Shown here in pieces: positions 1 through 22,015 of a stretch of 23,153 nt of DNA. This stretch comes from an uncultured Actinomycetes bacterium (GTDB lineage: Bacteria > Actinomycetota > Acidimicrobiia > Spongiisociales > DATADW01). The position numbers and the translations under genes are program-made. The notes under the pieces were generated by a model that had not been told where the DNA came from, did not search any database, and saw nothing but the letters and a program-made list of their open reading frames with translations. The stretch covers positions 246,928-270,080 of the forward strand of contig CAWGRK010000010.1 of NCBI GenBank assembly GCA_963824995.1, given 5' to 3'. The stretch's first letter is position 1. Each line of letters starts with the position of its first letter.

Positions 1-1339
1 CTCGTCCCGGGAATAGGACACGGTCGTCTGAGTCCGCCGGCTCGGACACGGCCAATTCCTCCCAGTGGATTGGGTCTCCGCCGGACCAGAGGGGAGATTG
101 GCGACGCACCACACCCGAGACCGCCGAAGCGACGCGGTCGCGGCGCGATCCGAAAATCACCTCCACCCCGAGATTGGCCGGGGCGTACCAGGCCCACTTG
201 GCCGAGTCGGTCATCACCACCCTCGCCTCGGGGTCGAGGATCGGGGTGATATAGGTGCAAGTGTCGCTGACCATCCGAACCCCGGCCGCCTCGAGGACCT
301 CGACATCTGAGCGGGCGGCAGCGACATCTCCGCGACCGGCGTTCACGTAGGTGTCGATCCGCACCTCGCGGCCATCGAGCAGCCGAGCCAGTTCGGCGAG
401 TTCTGTCCTGGAAGCATGGGGAGTGCCAATGCACACTGCGTCGAGCCGGTCCCCGGTCGCCGTGGAAAGCTCGGCTGCCGCGGCCGAGAGAAACCCAGGA
501 TCGACGAGCACCTCGAACTCGGCGGCCTCCCGGCCGCCAAGGGCGTCTTCGAGTGTCGCCGCCTCCGGCGTCACGCCGACGGCGTGGAACATCGCCACCG
601 ACCCGGCAGACGCCGCAGCGGCGCCGACCGCCTTCAACCGGTCCTCATCGGTATCGGGAGGCAAACCGACGAGCACCGGGACCACCGACCCCGCCAGCCG
701 ACCGAGAACGTGGCCAACCACCGGATAGAGGGCGTCATCCTCGAGCCAATCGTCCGGGACGCCGTCGAGGCGGACGACGAGACGGGCCCGCCGCCCGGCG
801 TCGAGGTGGAGCCCAGCGGCGGGCGCCCGACCAGTCACAGCGGCGGAAATGTCGATGAAGTCGCCGTAGCGGCCGGTACGCGCCCCGAGGACGCTGTTGG
901 CGAAGACGATGGCGTTCGACTCTGCCCAGGCAACTTGGTCCCCGAACGACGGACGCTCCATCAGTTGGTACGGGGAGCACGTCCAGGTGGGGCGACATCC
1001 CATCTCGACGTAAGCGTCCATGAGCCGGCGGGCTTGCACGGCCAATTCGGGATCCCCGCGAAAGCGCTCGGGATGGAGCAGGTCGAGCGTGGACACGTTG
1101 AGCGTGGTGGGCACAGCCGCCTTCGTCCCTGCCTCGGCCAAGAGAAGGGCGAAATCGAGACTCGCCTGACCGTGGTAGAGGCAACCGTCCACGTGGGCCC
1201 CGGCGATGTCGAGCAGACGATCCGCACCTAGGGCTTTCGCCGCCCCCACCACCACCTCCATGGCGATCCGCGGACCCTCACCACGGTCACCATCGAGCAT
1301 TCCGATGTCGTCGTCTTCGAGATGAAGTTCGGGTCGCAC
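1..1339 (-). CDS. Aconitase X (AcnX, DUF521) catalytic subunit, cis-3-hydroxy-L-proline dehydratase-like; open at left edge
   Basis: Not in the ORF track (no stop before the edge). Manual translation from GTG 1339: VRPELHLEDDDIGMLDGDRGEG...AHVDGCLYHGQASLDF...VPTTLNV...PTWTCSPY...AWAESNAIVFANSVLGART...CIGTPH...SDTCTY...VMTDSAKWAWYAPANLG, typical AcnX motifs. Confidence 0.88.
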   Translation of the reverse strand, partial: MRPELHLEDDDIGMLDGDRGEGPRIAMEVVVGAAKALGADRLLDIAGAHVDGCLYHGQASLDFALLLAEAGTKAAVPTTLNVSTLDLLHPERFRGDPELAVQARRLMDAYVEMGCRPTWTCSPYQLMERPSFGDQVAWAESNAIVFANSVLGARTGRYGDFIDISAAVTGRAPAAGLHLDAGRRARLVVRLDGVPDDWLEDDALYPVVGHVLGRLAGSVVPVLVGLPPDTDEDRLKAVGAAAASAGSVAMFHAVGVTPEAATLEDALGGREAAEFEVLVDPGFLSAAAAELSTATGDRLDAVCIGTPHASRTELAELARLLDGREVRIDTYVNAGRGDVAAARSDVEVLEAAGVRMVSDTCTYITPILDPEARVVMTDSAKWAWYAPANLGVEVIFGSRRDRVASAVSGVVRRQSPLWSGGDPIHWEELAVSEPADSDDRVLFPGR

Positions 1340-1428
1340 GCCCGGATTCTGGTCGGGCGGACCTGCCACCTGAGGTGGTGGCTCGGACAAATTTCCGGCC
1401 TCCCGGTCCGCAATCCCCCAATTTTCGG

Positions 1429-1434
1429 TATTCT
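1429..1434 (+). promoter_or_regulatory. Putative -10 element (TATTCT) for the riboswitch/cDPG transcript
   Basis: TANNNT hexamer about 6 nt upstream of the 5' end of the riboswitch. Confidence 0.5.
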
Positions 1435-1440
1435 GCCAGC

Positions 1441-1566
1441 CACGCCGAGCCCGGCTGTCTGCGGCCGGGGCGGGGGACCCAATCCATGGGGCGAATCCCG
1501 GTACGCCGGGTAGGGCGCCTTCCGGCCCGAGCCCGTCAGCTAACCCCGTAGGCAGCAGGAAGGAGG
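1441..1566 (+). ncRNA. c-di-AMP riboswitch (ydaO/yuaA class)
   Basis: Conserved blocks in the expected order: GCCGA (1444), hairpin, GGGGGACCCA (1472-1481), TGGGGCGAATC (1487-1497), GTAGGGC (1510-1516), CCTTCC (1518-1523), GCCCGAGCCCGTCAGCTAACCCCGTAGGC (1525-1553). GGAAGG (1558-1563) is complementary to CCTTCC (pseudoknot overlapping an SD-like GGAGG). Confidence 0.9.
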
Positions 1567-1629
1567 CCAGCTTGCTGGCTCTCCGCGGATCGCCGGTCTG
1601 GGACCGGCCGACATGAGGGGGCGGAGAAC

Positions 1630-2574
1630 ATGCCGCACCGGAGAGCCGACATAAACCGGCAGATGCGCCGAAGGGTCTTGGTCGCCGATCGCGAGGGGGC
1701 CAACCTGCCCTACTCGAAGGGGCTGATGGCCGCCTCGATCATGGCAACGGGCATCCCGCCGGGCCGGGCCTATGACCTTGCCGAACTCATCGAGCACGAT
1801 CTGCTCTCCTTGCGACAGGACACCGTCGATGCAGACACGCTCTCCGGCATCGCCGCAGATGTCCTGCTCCGGCACGCCGGCGATCACATAGCGCGCGGAT
1901 ATCTCGCCTGGAGGGCGGCTAAGCGCTCCCCGCGCCCAATCGTCGTCCTCATCGGCGGCGCCACCGGTGTGGGCAAGTCGACTGTCGCCACCAAGCTCGC
2001 AGCGCGGCTGGGCATCACGAGAGTGATCCCGACCGACACGGTGCGCGAGGTGATGCGCACCTTCATGCCGCCAATACAAGCGCCAGAGTTGCACTCGTCT
2101 TCCTTCGAGGTGGGCGGGGGGGCCGACGAGCTGATCCATGGGTTCCTCCGCCAGAGCCGATCGGTCGCAACCGGGATCGACGGGCTGCTGGGGAGGATGA
2201 TCGCTGAACACAAGGACTCGATCGTCGAAGGGATCCATCTCGTGCCGGGGATGCTCGACGAGGAGATGCTCCATCGTTTCCGCCTCGAGGCCGCCGTGGT
2301 CAAGGTGCTGCTCACCCTCCCCGATGCCTCGGTCCACCGGGCCCACTTCATCGGTCGCCTGGAGAGCGAGCATGGCCGGCGCCCGGAGCGTTACCTGCGC
2401 AACCTCAGCGACATCAGGAAGATCCAGACCCACCTCGAGGACCTCGCCGGGCCGCATGGGTTCTCACTGGTGGATGCCACCGACCTAGACGGAGCGATCC
2501 AGCAGGTACTCGATCTGGTCGTGGCTGAGGTGACCAGCGTCACTGGGGAGAGCCAGGTGGTCGTCGCCGGGTGA
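1630..2574 (+). CDS. 2-phosphoglycerate kinase (ATP-cone + P-loop kinase)
   Basis: N-terminal ATP-cone-like LPYSKGLMAASI; P-loop LIGGATGVGKST; ARLGITRVIPTDTVREVMR, PELHSSSF and IVEGIHLVPG match the archaeal-type 2PGK family. Stop overlaps the cDPGS start (GTGA). Confidence 0.88.
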   Translation: MPHRRADINRQMRRRVLVADREGANLPYSKGLMAASIMATGIPPGRAYDLAELIEHDLLSLRQDTVDADTLSGIAADVLLRHAGDHIARGYLAWRAAKRSPRPIVVLIGGATGVGKSTVATKLAARLGITRVIPTDTVREVMRTFMPPIQAPELHSSSFEVGGGADELIHGFLRQSRSVATGIDGLLGRMIAEHKDSIVEGIHLVPGMLDEEMLHRFRLEAAVVKVLLTLPDASVHRAHFIGRLESEHGRRPERYLRNLSDIRKIQTHLEDLAGPHGFSLVDATDLDGAIQQVLDLVVAEVTSVTGESQVVVAG

Positions 2575-3878
2575 CGCCCGCTCGGGCCCTGGTCCTCATC
2601 GACGGCGAGCACCACCCATCTGTGGTCCTGGATGGGCTGGCTGAGTTGCAGCGGCGCGGTCTGGTGCCGGTGGCGGCATTGTTCCTGGGTGGATCTGAGA
2701 AGACGGCCGGTCTGCCCGAATTGCCCATCCCGGTCCATTCCGGCGACCCGAGTGCGGCGCTCCATGACCTGATGGCGCGCTATCTGCCAGATGTCGTCTT
2801 TGACCTAAGCGACGAACCCGTGCTCGACCACCGGGCGCGATTCGCCCTGATTGGGGTGGCTCTCGCCTCGGGCGTCGCCTACGCGGGTGGAGGGTTCCGG
2901 TTCGAACCGCCCGATCTGCCCAGACTGACGACCAGGCCTTCGGTGGCGGTGGTCGGAACCGGCAAGCGGACCGGAAAGACGGCGGTGTCCATCGCGCTGG
3001 CGCGCCACTGGTCGGCATCCGGGAGAAAACCCGTTGTGGTGACGATGGGGCGAGGAGGCCCCGCAGAGCCCATCGTGCTCGACCCCGCAAACCTCGGCGA
3101 CGCGACTAGTGCGCTGCGCACGTTGGCGAGCCGCGGGCTCCATGCCGCGTCGGACTACGTCGAGGACGCCATCTTCGCCGGCGTCCCCACGGTGGGGACG
3201 AGGCGGATAGGTGCCGGTCCGGCCGGCGTCACCGTCGCCGACACGTTCGCCGCTGGGGTCGCCGCTGCGGATTTGCTGGATCCCGGGCTTCTCATCTTCG
3301 AGGGGAGTGGGACCGCCCTCCCCCCGGCTCGCTGGGATGCGAACGTACTGGTGATGCGGTCCCAGCTCGATCCCGAGTACATCACCGGGTACCTAGGCCC
3401 TTTCCGGCTGGCACTGGCCGACGCCGTCGTTGTCGTGGCCGATGGCGGCTCGGCGGCAGCAGTGGTCCGCCAGATGGCACCCGAGGTGGCGCTCTTCACC
3501 TGTCGCTACCGGGTCGAGCCGACCGTGCCGGTCCAAGGGCGCCGGGTCATGGTCGCCACCACCGCCCCCGAGCCTGCCGGCGACGAGTTGGCCGCCCAGT
3601 TCCGCAACCTCGGCGCGACCTCTGTCGTCGTGGTCCACACCCTCTCGAGGCGCGACCGCCTCCTCGCCGATCTGGAGGGCGCTCCTCCGTGCGACCTCGT
3701 CGTCACCGAGGTGAAGGCCGCGGCTGCCGACGTGGTGTTCCCATGGGCGGACCGGGCCGGAATCCAGGTCGGGCTGCTCCACAACCTGGTCGAGATCGAC
3801 GGGGGTTTGGGGCCACTGGCCGGCCTATTGGAAGAGCGTCTGGCGGCGCCCCGCGAGACTCAACCGAGCACGCGGTAG
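2571..3878 (+). CDS. cpgS: Cyclic 2,3-diphosphoglycerate synthetase (cDPGS)
   Basis: Motifs LIDGEHHP, LGGSEK, DLSDEPVLD, GTGKRTGKTAVS, MGRGGPAEP, HAASDYVED, EGSG, YLGPFRL and TEVKAAAADV. About 435 aa, directly downstream of 2PGK. Confidence 0.88.
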   Translation: MTPARALVLIDGEHHPSVVLDGLAELQRRGLVPVAALFLGGSEKTAGLPELPIPVHSGDPSAALHDLMARYLPDVVFDLSDEPVLDHRARFALIGVALASGVAYAGGGFRFEPPDLPRLTTRPSVAVVGTGKRTGKTAVSIALARHWSASGRKPVVVTMGRGGPAEPIVLDPANLGDATSALRTLASRGLHAASDYVEDAIFAGVPTVGTRRIGAGPAGVTVADTFAAGVAAADLLDPGLLIFEGSGTALPPARWDANVLVMRSQLDPEYITGYLGPFRLALADAVVVVADGGSAAAVVRQMAPEVALFTCRYRVEPTVPVQGRRVMVATTAPEPAGDELAAQFRNLGATSVVVVHTLSRRDRLLADLEGAPPCDLVVTEVKAAAADVVFPWADRAGIQVGLLHNLVEIDGGLGPLAGLLEERLAAPRETQPSTR

Positions 3879-4165
3879 ATCTTGCGTATCGGCTCCCTAC
3901 GGAGCATTCCCCGCACGCGTTCCTGACTATCGACGAGTTCCGGCGAGTCGAGGGCGGCCTCCATCGCCTCCAGCGTCGTCCAACGGGTGACCACGCCGCC
4001 CTCGACGAGTCCGCTCACCCCGGCCTCCTCTGCGATCACCAGATCGATCCCCAGGCAGTCAGGGTGGTCGCGGAAGGCGGGAACGACATCGGCCTCGAAC
4101 AGCGAGATGACCTCCTCGACATCGTCGGGGGAGACCGCGGAGAGGAAGAAGCGGATGTAGCTCAC
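3860..4165 (-). CDS. Antibiotic biosynthesis monooxygenase (ABM)/dimeric alpha-beta barrel family protein
   Basis: About 101 aa with ABM-like pattern (FEADVVPAFRDHPDCLG...VVTRWTTLEAMEAA). GTG 4165 overlaps the stop of the phosphoesterase. Confidence 0.6.
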   Translation of the reverse strand: MSYIRFFLSAVSPDDVEEVISLFEADVVPAFRDHPDCLGIDLVIAEEAGVSGLVEGGVVTRWTTLEAMEAALDSPELVDSQERVRGMLRREPIRKIYRVLG

Positions 4166-4986
4166 CAGCCCCAACTCGACTTGGAGAACATGCCGGCCAA
4201 TTCGGGATTGCGGTCGAGCGCTCGGGTATTCCGGTCGTATCTGGCGGCCAGCTTCTCGCCGCTCCCCGGGTACATCAGGGTCACCGAGATCGCCTCGGAA
4301 TCGACGGTGACCACGTTGTACGACGGTCTCGTGTAGCCGCGGAGGCGGAAGGAGGAAACTGTCCCGCTGTTGACCACCATGATCCCGTCCACCACCCAGA
4401 TGTGGGGCACGTGCTTATGGCCACACAGGACCAGATCGACCCCGCTCTCCTCGAGCACCGCCAGAACGTCGCCCGCGTCCCACACGGTGTTGCGCTCTCG
4501 TCCGGTTCCCGGGACAGGCACGAGGTGGTGGTGGAGGGCGAATATCCGCAGGTCCGACGGAGTGGTGAACTGCTCCCGGATCCACGGGTAGCGGACCCTC
4601 CCCACCTCCCCCTCGGCGAGGTCGGGCTTGGAGCTGTCCACGGCAACCAGGGTGACCCGCTCAGGCTCGACACCCCTGGCCAGGTCCACCACCACATCGT
4701 TTCCGGCGTCACCCTTCCCGAAATGGTCCTCAAAGTGGACATAGCCGACGTTCTTGGCGTCGTGGTTGCCCGGGATGATCACGGTGAGCAGTTCGTCGAC
4801 CAAAGGTCGCAGCGCATCGCGGGCCATCTGGAACTCGTTGGCGTACCCCTCCTGGGTGAGATCGCCGGCTACCACCACCATGTCTGGCTGAAGGGAGAGA
4901 ATCTCCTCGACGGCATGACTGAGCAGGTCAGGGTCGAAATACTGGGAGCCGCAGTGGATGTCCGACAGCTGGGCGATGGTGAGCAC
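4162..4986 (-). CDS. Calcineurin-like metallophosphoesterase (CpdA/Icc-like)
   Basis: All five metal-binding motifs: SDIH, GDLT, PGNHD, LHHH, CGHKH. Confidence 0.88.
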   Translation of the reverse strand: MLTIAQLSDIHCGSQYFDPDLLSHAVEEILSLQPDMVVVAGDLTQEGYANEFQMARDALRPLVDELLTVIIPGNHDAKNVGYVHFEDHFGKGDAGNDVVVDLARGVEPERVTLVAVDSSKPDLAEGEVGRVRYPWIREQFTTPSDLRIFALHHHLVPVPGTGRERNTVWDAGDVLAVLEESGVDLVLCGHKHVPHIWVVDGIMVVNSGTVSSFRLRGYTRPSYNVVTVDSEAISVTLMYPGSGEKLAARYDRNTRALDRNPELAGMFSKSSWGW

Positions 4987-18015: not shown

Positions 18016-19848
18016 ATGGCCAAGGCCGTCGGCATCGATCTCGGGACCACGAACAGCGTCATCGCCGTCTTGGAGGGCGGCGAGCCCACGATCATTCCCA
18101 ATGCGGAAGGTTCACGGGTCACACCATCGGTAGTCGCCTTCAAGGACGGAGAGGTTCTCGTGGGCGAGGTGGCCAAGCGCCAGGCGATCACCAACCCGGA
18201 CCGGACCATCCGTTCGGTGAAGCGTCACATGGGAACGAACTGGAACGCCGAGGCGGACGGGAAGAAGTACACCGCCCAGGAGATTTCCGCTCGCGTCCTG
18301 CAGAAGTTGAAGAGGGACGCCGAGTCGTACCTCGGTGACACGGTGGCGGAGGCCGTCATCACCGTCCCGGCGTACTTCAACGATGCGCAGCGGCAGGCGA
18401 CCAAGGAAGCCGGTCAGATCGCCGGCCTCAACGTGCTCCGCATCATCAACGAGCCGACAGCCGCCTCGCTCGCCTATGGCTTGGACAAGGAGACCTCGGA
18501 CCACACCATTCTCGTTTTCGACCTGGGGGGAGGGACCTTCGATGTTTCGCTGCTCGAGATCGGCGAAGGCGTCTTCGAGGTCAAGGCGACCTCAGGTGAC
18601 ACCCATCTCGGGGGAGATGACTGGGACGAGAAAGTCATGGAGTGGCTGGTGACCGGGTTCAAGAACGAAAGCGGGGTGGACCTCGGCAAGGACAAGATGG
18701 CACTGCAGCGGCTCAAGGAGGCTGCGGAGAAGGCCAAGATCGAATTGTCGTCGGTCCCCGAGACCGAGATCAACCTCCCCTTCATCACCGCCACGGCTGA
18801 GGGCCCGCTCCATCTGCAGCGCAAGCTGACCCGTTCGGAGTTCCAGAAGCTGACCGAGGACCTGCTCGACCGGACCAAGTCACCGTTCAACCAGGTGATC
18901 AAGGATGCCGGAGTAGATGTCGCCGACATTGACCACATCGTCCTGGTCGGCGGCTCGACCCGGATGCCCGCCGTTCAGGACCTGGTGCGCGAGCTCACCG
19001 GCAAGGATCCCCACAAGGGTGTCAATCCCGACGAGGTGGTCGCCGCAGGTGCCGCTATCCAGGCGGGCGTGCTCAAGGGCGATGTCAAGGACATCCTCCT
19101 CCTCGATGTGACCCCCCTGACCCTCGGGATCGAGACCAAGGGTGGGGTAATGACCAAGATGATCGAGCGCAACACGACCATCCCCACCCGGCGGTCGGAG
19201 GTGTTCACCACTGCCGAGAGCAACCAACCCGAGGTCGAAATCCACGTCTTGCAGGGTGAGCGTGCGATGTCCGCTGACAACAAGAGCCTCGGCAAGTTCC
19301 GGCTGACCGGCATCCCGCCGGCGCCGATGGGGATTCCCCAGATCGAGGTGACCTTCGACATCGACGCCAATGGCATCGTCTCGGTCAACGCCAAGGATCT
19401 CGGTACCGGCAAGGAGCAGGCGATGACCATCACCGGTGGGACGGCCTTGGCCGGCGACGAGATCGACCGGATGGTCAAGGACGCCGAGCAGTACGCCGAG
19501 GAAGACCGGCAACGTCGCGAGGCTGCGGAGACACGCAACCAGGGCGACCAGTTGGTGCACCAGACCGACAAGCTGCTCACCGAGCAGGCGGAGCAACTGA
19601 GCGACGACGAGCGCAGCGCGATCGAGTCTGCCCTCAAGGATCTCCGCACCACCCTGGAGGACCAGTCGGTGGCCGCCGACGAGATCCGCTCCAAGATGGA
19701 AGCGGTGATAACGGCTTCGCAGGCACTGGCCCAGCGGATCTATCAGCAGGCAGCGGAGCAACAGGCAGGCGAGGAATCGTCGGGCGTCGAGGACGAGGAC
19801 ATCGTCGAGGCCGAGATCGTCGATGAGGGCGAAGAGGAGCAGGCTTGA
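18016..19848 (+). CDS. dnaK: Chaperone DnaK (Hsp70)
   Basis: [48 protein letters not shown]. Confidence 0.99.
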
Positions 19849-20471
19849 CGGCGGACGGCGGACGGCGGACGACCGTGAACGAGGAGGCAAGTGCGCCGGA
19901 GGTGGAGATCATCGAAGGCGAGGTCGTCACGGGCGAGATCGTCCCTGAACCGGAGCCACTCGACCCGCACGTCCTCGGTCTCGAGTTCCCTGAGGATCCC
20001 GAGGAGGCACGTCAAGTCCTGTTGAGTGCCTTGGCCGAGAGTCGCGACGAGGCCGGGCGTTATCTCGATGACCTTCGCCGGGTCGCCGCCGACTTCGACA
20101 ACTTCAGGAAGCGTGCCCTGCGCGACCAGGGCGCCATTGTCGAGCGCGCCTCGGAGCGGGTGGTCCAGTCGTTGCTCCCGGTTCTCGACAGTCTCGACGC
20201 CGCAATGGCGATCGAGCCGGAGACCGAGACTGAGCGCAAGCTTCTCGACGGCGTCAAGGGCACCTTCAACTTGCTCCTCGATACGCTCGGGAAAGAGGGT
20301 CTCGTACCCATCGAGGCGCTGGGCATGGACTTCGACCCGACCGTCCACGAGGCTGTGGCGGCGCCCGGCGGTGGAGAGAGCGACCTCGTGGTCACCCAGG
20401 AACTGCGGCGCGGCTACACGCTGGGTAGCCGGGTGCTGAGGCCCTCCCTCGTTGTCGTAGACCACGGATGA
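19845..20471 (+). CDS. grpE: Nucleotide exchange factor GrpE (start TTG 19845 or GTG 19875)
   Basis: [46 protein letters not shown]. Confidence 0.96.
19847..19874. repeat. Tandem heptamer repeat (GACGGCG)3-GACGACC
   Basis: Read directly at the dnaK/grpE junction. Confidence 0.85.
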
Positions 20472-20502
20472 GGCCATGGCGGGGGCATAGGAGGCCTAAC
20501 TC

Positions 20503-21612
20503 TTGAACCGAGACTGGGTCGACAAGGACTTCTACAAGGTGCTGGGCGTCGGCCGCGACGCAGACCAGGACCAAATCAAGCGCGCCTACCGCAAGCTCGC
20601 CCAGAAGCATCACCCAGACGCCAACCAGGGTGACGAGAAGGCCGAGGACAAGTTCAAGGACGTCTCCGAGGCCTACGCCACCCTCTCCGATCCCGAGCAG
20701 CGCAAGGAGTACGACGAAGTCCGCACCATGGTGGACAGCGGCGGGTTCCGTGGGTTCGGTGGATCGGGGGCGTATTCCGGTGGCCAGAGGGTGCGCGTCG
20801 AGGATCTGTCCGACCTCTTCGGTGGGATCGGTGACATCTTCGGAGGGTCAAGGGGGCGTGCCACCACACCGCAGCGTGGTCCGGACGCCGGCACCGACCT
20901 ACACCTCACCTTCGACGAGGCGGTGCGCGGGGTTGATACCGCGGTAACGGTGCGTGGCGAGGCCACGTGCAGCAGATGTCACGGCTCGGGCGCCGAGCCG
21001 GGGACACCGGTGACTGTGTGCCCGACCTGTCGCGGTTCGGGCACAGTCGCCCAGAACCAAGGGGTGTTTTCCTTCGCCTCTCCCTGCCCGCAATGCCGTG
21101 GCTCGGGGATGTTGATCGAGCAGGCCTGTGCCCAGTGCCGCGGCAGCGGGACAGAGGTGCGCTCGAGGACCGTCAAGGTTCGGGTGCCGCCGGGTGTCAA
21201 GCCTGGAGGGACGATCAGGCTCAAAGGCAAGGGCTCACCGGGTCGTAACGGCGGCCCCTCTGGAGACCTCCTCATCAAGACCCACGTGGCACATCACCCG
21301 GTGTTTGGTCGTCGTGGCGACGACCTGACCGTCAAGGTGCCAATCACCTACTCGGAGGCTGTGCTCGGCGCCAAGGTCGAGGTCCCAACCCTCAACGGCT
21401 CGGTCACCCTCAAGGTGCCTCCGGGCACACCAGGCGGCAAGACGTTCCGGATCAGAGGAAAAGGAATCGATCGGGCAAGGGGCAAACCGGGCGACCTTCT
21501 GGCCACGGTCGACGTCGTCATCCCGCAGAAGGTCAACCGTGATGCCAAGAAATTGCTCGAGGAGTTACGCGCCTTCGAGCCGGAGAACCCACGAGCCAAC
21601 CTGAGGGTCTGA
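20503..21612 (+). CDS. dnaJ: Chaperone DnaJ
   Basis: J-domain with HPD, G/F region, four CxxCxGxG repeats; TTG start with GGAGG. Confidence 0.97.
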   Translation: MNRDWVDKDFYKVLGVGRDADQDQIKRAYRKLAQKHHPDANQGDEKAEDKFKDVSEAYATLSDPEQRKEYDEVRTMVDSGGFRGFGGSGAYSGGQRVRVEDLSDLFGGIGDIFGGSRGRATTPQRGPDAGTDLHLTFDEAVRGVDTAVTVRGEATCSRCHGSGAEPGTPVTVCPTCRGSGTVAQNQGVFSFASPCPQCRGSGMLIEQACAQCRGSGTEVRSRTVKVRVPPGVKPGGTIRLKGKGSPGRNGGPSGDLLIKTHVAHHPVFGRRGDDLTVKVPITYSEAVLGAKVEVPTLNGSVTLKVPPGTPGGKTFRIRGKGIDRARGKPGDLLATVDVVIPQKVNRDAKKLLEELRAFEPENPRANLRV

Positions 21613-21613
21613 C

Positions 21614-22015
21614 ATGGCAGACGATGTGCAGAGGAGCGAAGCCGTCTTCGTCATCTCGGTGGCCGCCGAGCTCACCGGAGTCCATCCCCAGACGCTGAGG
21701 ATCTATGAGCGTCGCGGGCTGATCGAGCCCTTCCGCACCCCCGGGGGTACCCGGCGCTACTCCCGGGCCGACCTGGACCGGCTCGAGCTCATCCAGGCGC
21801 TCACCGAGGCCGGACTCAACCTGGAGGGAGTAAAGCGGGTGATGAAGCTGGAGGAGGAGATCGAGGAGATGCGTCGCGACGTGGCCGAGATGCAAAGGCG
21901 CGTCGAGGAGATGGCCGCAGAGGCGGAGCGGAGAGTGCGCGAGGTCCACCGCAGCTACCGTCGCGAGATCGTGCTTCACAGCAGGATTCAATCCCAGGCC
22001 CGGCAGGACGACTGA
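21614..22015 (+). CDS. hspR: Heat-shock repressor HspR (MerR family)
   Basis: FVISVAAELTGVHPQTLRIYERRGL...RTPGGTRRYS, GLNLEGVKR; canonical position after dnaJ. Confidence 0.94.
   Translation: MADDVQRSEAVFVISVAAELTGVHPQTLRIYERRGLIEPFRTPGGTRRYSRADLDRLELIQALTEAGLNLEGVKRVMKLEEEIEEMRRDVAEMQRRVEEMAAEAERRVREVHRSYRREIVLHSRIQSQARQDD

Follow-up and report, generated by a model that had tools for sequence, protein, structure and literature searches.

The stretch of DNA considered here, the window, comprises 23,153 nt of contig CAWGRK010000010.1 from an uncultured Actinomycetes bacterium (GCA_963824995.1). Within it, an element of the cyclic di-AMP (c-di-AMP) riboswitch class, ydaO/yuaA (1433-1569, + strand), stands in the presumed 5' leader of two overlapping genes on the same strand, which encode a predicted 2-phosphoglycerate kinase (2PGK; 1630-2574, 314 aa) and a predicted cyclic 2,3-diphosphoglycerate (cDPG) synthetase (cDPGS; 2571-3878, 435 aa). 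An earlier note, made from the sequence alone, had proposed that c-di-AMP gates cDPG synthesis through this element, and the analysis below weighs that proposal.

The riboswitch and the genes it precedes

A covariance-model search assigned positions 1433-1569 to Rfam family RF00379 at 76.8 bits (gathering score 38; E 1.6e-16), with the whole model covered (model positions 1-134), and the ydaO-class call of the earlier note is thereby upheld. RF00379 is the sole Rfam family matched in the window, where no second family was found, and the match is the only one to this model in the 2.9-Mb genome, which is 85% complete. Mapped to the model, the helices are P1 (1444-1446/1551-1553), P2 (1450-1454/1465-1469), P3 (1470-1475/1544-1549), P4 (1489-1491/1532-1534), P5 (1497-1501/1506-1510) and P6 (1513-1516/1525-1528), and a terminal pseudoknot joins the P6 loop (1518-1523) to 1558-1563 through 6/6 Watson-Crick pairs. 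Every helix pair and every pseudoknot pair is standard, and four core segments (1470-1481, 1488-1497, 1510-1515, and 1526-1545) are identical, in a comparison by eye, to the crystallised-aptamer sequence that PMC5393176 gives.

Relatives of the aptamer preserve this architecture. An alignment of 26 aptamers (11 linked to 2PGK and 15 linked to an antiporter gene) has 97.6% of its cells paired, against 28-56% in slid controls, and shows compensatory double changes at 9 of 26 pairs; because the sequences are kin, no probability is attached to these figures. The covariation count leaves out the pseudoknot, since the aptamer tail aligns poorly, and the pseudoknot pairing of five rows was taken directly from the alignment; at one locus, L193, the terminal pseudoknot pair has undergone a compensatory change. 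No core column distinguishes the 2PGK-linked from the antiporter-linked aptamers. In the first loop that follows P1, the window carries a G at 1449 instead of the consensus A, and this GAG in place of GAA occurs in 7/11 2PGK-linked and 3/15 antiporter-linked aptamers. The window copy also scores below the same-genus copies, which reach 82.9-85.1 bits. One relative (L008:2975-3000) has an additional 24-nt hairpin between P1 and the pseudoknot strand that leaves both intact. Judged from its sequence and predicted structure, the element is a genuine riboswitch in the presumed 2PGK leader that should bind c-di-AMP, and an altered ligand specificity appears unlikely.

The two genes downstream bear out the identities given in the earlier note. 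The 2PGK reading frame combines an ATP-cone, matched weakly in Pfam, with a P-loop (GGATGVGKST), and its best NCBIfam families are PRK12337 (E 2e-75) and PRK04220 (E 4e-69); no relative of it was found in the PDB. A reading as a mevalonate kinase was tried and rejected: mevalonate-3-phosphate 5-kinase scores far lower (E 2e-21), and the aconitase X gene found beside the cluster adjoins it in this genus only. The cDPGS start overlaps the 2PGK stop by GTGA, and the protein is homologous over residues 5-415 to the Methanothermus fervidus synthetase structures 8ORK and 8ORU (E 2e-65). The catalytic and metal-binding residues named for that enzyme in PMC10690619 are retained: E43, K44, K132, R133, and K136 align with M. 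fervidus E45, K46, K145, R146, and K149, and T137, D195, E380, and K382 with T150, D208, E404, and K406. All nine are invariant in 10/10 aligned homologs, and the window copy looks like an intact, predicted synthetase. The five closest relatives, labelled Acidimicrobiia (two) and Actinomycetes (three), share 78-84% cDPGS identity with it, and among 61 relatives 2PGK and cDPGS are present in the same 16.

The 2PGK ATG at 1630 lies 60 nt past the end of the RF00379 match and 63 nt past 1566, on the same strand, which agrees with the spacing of about 63 nt first reported. The -10 box of the earlier note fared less evenly. A -10-like hexamer, TATTCT, is present at 1429-1434 (+ strand), 15 nt 5' of P1, from which a start near 1440 is inferred, and a TAnnnT hexamer occurs 13-15 nt 5' of P1 in 13/13 riboswitch-2PGK loci; against the box, a strict sigma-70 scan called no promoter across 900-4500. 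Seven RNA runs shared 5-17% of sampled words, and the four examined proved to be assembled contigs, uninformative on start, strand or level. A possible leader peptide, a 14-codon frame opening with TTG at 1572, was discarded because its start codon is missing in 5/5 same-genus loci.

Conservation of the riboswitch-2PGK pairing

The riboswitch stands immediately 5' of 2PGK at 13 loci, namely the window, five same-genus genomes, L008, L009, G010, G021, G225, and the metagenome contigs L100 and L101; their aptamers score 75-91 bits against the Rfam model. Since the genomes are related and a single genus supplies six of the loci, these figures should not be read as independent. Outside the genus, the linked 2PGKs share 51-59% identity, and the upstream neighbours vary where they were read. 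The cDPGS gene lies directly 3' of 2PGK in 10/13 loci and somewhere in the genome in 12/13. In G010 and G021 the riboswitch precedes a stand-alone 2PGK paralog, and cDPGS is found elsewhere with a second 2PGK. The constant target of the riboswitch is therefore the 2PGK gene, not the operon, as 2PGK lacks a following cDPGS in 3/13 loci; the claim that the riboswitch controls a cDPG operon thus stands for most of the linked loci and gives way, as a general statement, to one about 2PGK. Both G010 and G021 are unpublished genomes, which supply 2/13 loci, two of the nine order-level cases below and the stand-alone paralogs; 11 loci remain without them.

An order-level sample of 151 genomes contains the riboswitch in 27 (28 matches), 2PGK in 24 and both in nine, and in 9/9 of the latter the riboswitch sits on 2PGK. 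Beyond the order the association was not seen. A further 28 phylum-level cDPGS loci, searched with 1.5-kb flanks and a custom profile, gave no RF00379 match, and six distant genomes hold 6-9 riboswitch copies each, yet no cDPG gene lies within 1.5 kb of any of the 29 copies taken from them. The cDPGS gene itself is present in 200 of 351 genomes evenly drawn from the phylum. (The unpublished genome G068 underlies locus L015 and some of the distant riboswitch copies, and the phylum counts take in 13 unpublished genomes.) Because distant cDPGS and 2PGK loci are without RF00379 while cDPGS is common in the phylum, the riboswitch link is a lineage-specific addition, in part of one order, to an old and widespread gene set. 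Surveys of bacterial cDPGS and 2PGK loci, of the kind that the earlier note had suggested, found the riboswitch at 13 2PGK loci, confined to part of one order, and most of the cDPG loci examined free of it. On a 60-row 2PGK tree the riboswitch label needs two changes, and 13% of bootstrap trees permit one. Among the distant loci, L024 is a 3.3-kb contig labelled Zavarzinia (Pseudomonadota) that carries cDPGS-2PGK with a kinase grouping with Actinomycetota, the result of transfer or mis-binning.

The remaining riboswitches of the order have a different and consistent target. Eighteen of the other 19 matches, in 17 genomes (L047, L051, L056, L180-L192, L195, L196), precede one membrane-protein family, as recognised by N-terminal sequence, and the single member scanned at full length proved to be a CPA2-type antiporter carrying a Na_H_Exchanger domain and two Usp domains. 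None of these 17 genomes contains 2PGK. A distance of 8-16 nt separates the pseudoknot strand from the start codon in 18/18 antiporter leaders, a position at which that strand would also serve as the ribosome site. The last match (L194:1007-2110, G274) precedes a different gene, not 2PGK and not the antiporter, which has only a weak CBS match and is cut by the contig edge.

Leader structure and the predicted switch

Local folding of 44 nt predicts a hairpin, H1 (1562-1570 with 1575-1584, + strand), that draws in the two 3'-terminal bases of the pseudoknot strand and sequesters an anti-ribosome-site strand (1580-1586). The 2PGK translation start region downstream comprises a purine-rich ribosome site (about 1615-1621), the target of the anti-site strand (1621-1627) and the ATG (1630-1632), and the 3' arm of H1 is complementary to this region too (1580-1586 with 1621-1627 in the window). 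A second predicted hairpin, H2 (1592-1608), would juxtapose these two strands. The same local folding places the end of the pseudoknot strand within H1 at 13/13 loci, and a hairpin of differing sequence occupies the H2 position in most other 2PGK loci; in L193, changes in the loop are accompanied by changes in the pseudoknot strand and in the H1 partner. The 2PGK leaders are 52-72 nt longer than the antiporter leaders and hold H1, usually a second hairpin, and then the ribosome site. No intrinsic-terminator-like site was found on the + strand across 900-4500.

When the pseudoknot strand was blocked in leaders cut at the ATG, the predicted cost of opening the ribosome site rose by 2.9-6.6 kcal/mol in 13/13 leaders. 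The lowest shift in 39 locus-by-length tests was -0.2 kcal/mol, and no leader was clearly ON. The minimum-energy fold of the whole leader was not more stable than shuffles (z 0.14). On this modelling, and by analogy with characterised members of the class, the likeliest direction is OFF at high c-di-AMP, through translation rather than a terminator.

The corresponding mechanism can be set out as follows. At low c-di-AMP, made by the diadenylate cyclase DisA, H1 would form, take part of the pseudoknot strand and hide the pyrimidine-rich strand, so that 2PGK could be translated; cDPGS would be translated next via the GTGA overlap, and 2-phosphoglycerate would be converted to 2,3-diphosphoglycerate (2,3-DPG) and then to cDPG. 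At high c-di-AMP the pseudoknot would close, the base of H1 would be lost and the freed strand would cover the 2PGK start region, turning translation OFF, a block that would presumably pass on to cDPGS likewise. Synthesis of cDPG would then be handled as a matter of ion or osmotic balance, most simply as that of an anionic compatible solute held with K+.

Interpretation of the proposed c-di-AMP control

The host genome has the means to make the signal. It encodes DisA (382.7 bits against an NCBIfam cut-off of 201, with DGA and RHR motifs), the diadenylate cyclase for which the earlier note had advised looking, and this was the one DAC-domain gene found; a DAC domain is present in 58/61 relatives and is non-discriminating. 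The reading frame directly 5' of disA has an N-terminal cysteine motif and looks like RadA. DisA is inhibited by branched DNA. A DHH-domain gene is also present in the genome. Its kdpA gene is in two pieces (G000:C12:8512-10181, - strand), no TrkH-type K+ transporter was found in the genome (85% complete), and the only antiporter relative found is a distant one (27%).

Riboswitches of this class are tied to K+ transport, osmoprotectants and the cell wall (PMC7288161, PMC7266159) and are described in the literature as OFF switches. The window element shares with the class a full-length match, the helices and pseudoknot, its apparent place in a 5' leader and a genome encoding DisA. It differs in lacking an intrinsic terminator and in its target, 2PGK and cDPGS, where the class is otherwise described ahead of genes for K+ and amino-acid transport, osmoprotectants and the cell wall, and in Actinobacteria almost exclusively ahead of those for the cell wall. 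The nearest mechanistic parallel is the nlpC riboswitch of Corynebacterium glutamicum, which is likewise actinobacterial and terminator-free, and for which reporters showed translational repression (PMC9960051). A CTCC strand proposed there to swap an upstream GGAG for the ribosome site matches the H1 arrangement of the window; the nlpC riboswitch controls a cell-wall peptidase, and repression was measured there whereas it is only predicted here. In Dehalobacter, a c-di-AMP riboswitch shuts off an osmolyte-precursor gene, lysine 2,3-aminomutase (PMC9337991), which resembles the control proposed here in turning off osmolyte-precursor synthesis shared with archaea, and differs in serving another solute, in being terminator-based and in standing in tandem with a Na+ riboswitch, none of which holds in the window. 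As for the pathway, M. fervidus and the window share both enzymes and the cDPGS catalytic and metal-binding residues; the M. fervidus pathway is archaeal and temperature-induced (PMC10690619), whereas that of the window is bacterial and riboswitch-led, with cDPG as its inferred product.

Together, these observations lead us to favour, with rather better than even confidence, the view that a genuine c-di-AMP riboswitch, retained across one lineage, precedes the gene for the first step towards cDPG and acts most likely as a translational OFF switch in the service of ion or osmotic balance. Such a balance is the likeliest purpose of the control because the same aptamer leads a cation/proton antiporter in sister lineages, and a role of cDPG in osmotic balance has been put forward (PMC1224877). 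Heat protection, osmotic balance and storage of phosphate and energy have all been considered as functions of cDPG, and the riboswitch reveals a signal tied to the pathway: c-di-AMP, a K+ and osmotic signal, leads the first committed step, which suggests that cDPG is made for salt or potassium balance. Neither the riboswitch class nor control of osmolyte synthesis by c-di-AMP is new; the 2PGK/cDPG target is, as far as we searched. In line with the earlier note, which knew of no description of the link, no publication was found that links a c-di-AMP riboswitch to 2PGK or cDPG or to Acidimicrobiia, in a search that left subscription literature, including possible gene-association tables, largely outside. 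Nor was one found that measures cDPG in a native bacterium, the accessible part of a 2025 preprint on cDPG synthesis included.

A number of results weigh against the favoured reading. On the folding side, when 15 or 25 nt of coding sequence are added, the shift falls to between -0.2 and +0.3 kcal/mol in all six loci of the genus, that of the window being one, since base-pairing between 1577-1585 and 1639-1647 is possible in both states; this 9-bp complement between the anti-ribosome-site strand and 2PGK codons 4-6, which L008 also has, may fix the leader in its OFF state or dampen the response. The predicted switch is kept in the seven remaining loci (1.2-6.1 kcal/mol with 15 nt of coding sequence), and in this genus a translational OFF switch would need co-transcriptional timing. 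Shuffled spacers shift upward too, by means of 0.4-3.4 kcal/mol; just 7/13 leaders are matched by four or fewer of 60 shuffles; and an initial two-state folding model gave no switch in this genus. On the side of distribution, 15 of the 24 order genomes with 2PGK are without the riboswitch (2PGK loci scanned at E 0.1), and no RF00379 match was found at 16 more distant cDPGS loci (L010-L025, flanks up to 4 kb) or at 78/80 2PGK loci from metagenomes (custom profile; many flanks were short). Genome G225, 94% complete, has the riboswitch-2PGK pair, and neither cDPGS nor a close phosphoesterase was found in it with these queries; it perhaps represents a broken operon. Its 2PGK stop overlaps an unrelated reading frame by the same GTGA pattern (L225:1614-3202). 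The genes raise doubts of their own: 2PGK scores under both NCBIfam cut-offs (254 against 603 bits for PRK12337, and 233 against 343 bits for PRK04220), and cDPGS is frameshifted in 3/5 same-genus assemblies (L003, L006, L007), probably through assembly errors; neighbouring genes of two of them are also frameshifted, and the window copy is open. Lastly, trehalose-phosphate synthase, a betaine-type binding protein and Kdp genes are present in the genome with none under the riboswitch, and PMC10690619 has cDPG found exclusively in hyperthermophilic methanogens.

The main rival to the osmotic reading keeps the OFF switch and changes its purpose: DisA would lower c-di-AMP at damaged or branched DNA, and cDPG would serve as a stress protectant or as a store of phosphate, carbon or energy. 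That DisA is the sole DAC product found, encoded directly after the presumed RadA gene, fits such a role, as does the literature on cDPG, in which the compound shields DNA against hydroxyl radicals, scavenges superoxide and is proposed to act as a reserve of phosphate and energy (PMC10690619, PMC1224877). The aptamer's position ahead of a cation/proton antiporter in 17 order genomes points instead to ion balance, and we regard the DNA-stress or storage role as unlikely. Reversed or non-translational control, that is, an ON switch or Rho-dependent or kinetic control of transcription, with cDPG rising at high K+ as a counter-anion, would accommodate the missing OFF shift when coding sequence is included in this genus. 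A counter-ion role fits synthesis at high K+, both cDPG enzymes being K+-activated in methanogens (PMC10690619), and in vitro termination has been noted for a terminator-less Streptomyces riboswitch (PMC9960051). Yet none of the 39 folding tests gave a clear ON shift, the H1 wiring resembles the repressing C. glutamicum case and the class is described as OFF, which together make this alternative improbable.

Two further explanations concern what is controlled and what is sensed. If the riboswitch tuned 2,3-DPG or another kinase product, with cDPG synthesis incidental, the stand-alone 2PGK paralogs of G010 and G021, the absence of a detected cDPGS in G225 and the sub-threshold 2PGK scores would all fit. 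We consider this a slim prospect, given that cDPGS comes directly after 2PGK in 10 of 13 cases and is encoded somewhere in the genome in 12, that the two genes mark the same 16 of 61 relatives, and that aconitase X, a possible hint of mevalonate or hydroxyproline metabolism, adjoins the cluster in this genus only. Slimmer still is the chance that a rearrangement brought the element here as a relic, or that it is a variant sensing another ligand. Its GAG bias among 2PGK-linked aptamers and the lower score of the window copy would suit such an origin, against which stand core columns common to both groups, covarying helices, four core segments that match the crystallised aptamer exactly, and a separate expression platform retained across 2PGKs of 51-59% identity.

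A candidate cDPG hydrolase and other neighbouring genes

Convergent on cDPGS lies a gene for a 104-aa ABM-domain protein (3860-4174, - strand; Pfam ABM, E 1.7e-05), next to one for a 274-aa calcineurin-like metallophosphoesterase (4162-4986, - strand; PF00149, E 1e-19), which lies outside riboswitch control because it is on the opposite strand. In order-level cDPG loci the ABM gene is directly downstream of the phosphoesterase whether the riboswitch is present or absent. In riboswitch-free loci of the order (L243-L253), 2PGK is divergent from the phosphoesterase, mostly with a gap below 100 bp, and cDPGS is convergent past the ABM gene.

The phosphoesterase tracks cDPGS closely. Among the 61 relatives it is present in 16/16 cDPGS-positive and 1/45 cDPGS-negative genomes, the exception being a 57%-complete genome in which it stands at a contig end. 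In the phylum sample, with lists compared by eye, both genes occur in 197 genomes, cDPGS only in three, the phosphoesterase only in seven (four of these matches being weak, at E 1e-14 or worse) and neither in 144. Of 38 metagenome loci in which at least 1 kb precedes cDPGS, 22 have the phosphoesterase on that side, and 5/10 distant phosphoesterase clusters bear archaeal names, including Methanobacterium and Methanobrevibacter; the enzyme's only relatives in the PDB are distant phosphodiesterases. A cDPG hydrolase activity, inhibited by K+, has been described in Methanothermobacter, with no gene named in the accessible text (PMC1224877). Co-occurrence and neighbourhood thus make the phosphoesterase a concrete candidate for this hydrolase. 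In a bolder picture, which we advance only tentatively, ordinary soil-type Actinomycetota use cDPG as a regulated osmolyte or counter-anion to K+, in contrast to a heat protectant of methanogens; this riboswitch ties its synthesis to the c-di-AMP signal of ion balance, and the phosphoesterase is the long-unassigned hydrolase that empties the pool.

On the other side of the riboswitch, and divergent from it, lies an aconitase X gene (1-1339, - strand; also L002:10552-12267); adjacency of this gene to a cDPG cluster was found in this genus only. Its frame continues for about 125 residues after the Pfam domain ends, an extension that may be a fused small subunit; close by is an FAD-oxidoreductase-like gene. 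Further along the window (18016-22015, + strand), look-alikes of dnaK, grpE, dnaJ, and hspR, named by reading their translations, form what appears to be an ordinary heat-shock operon.

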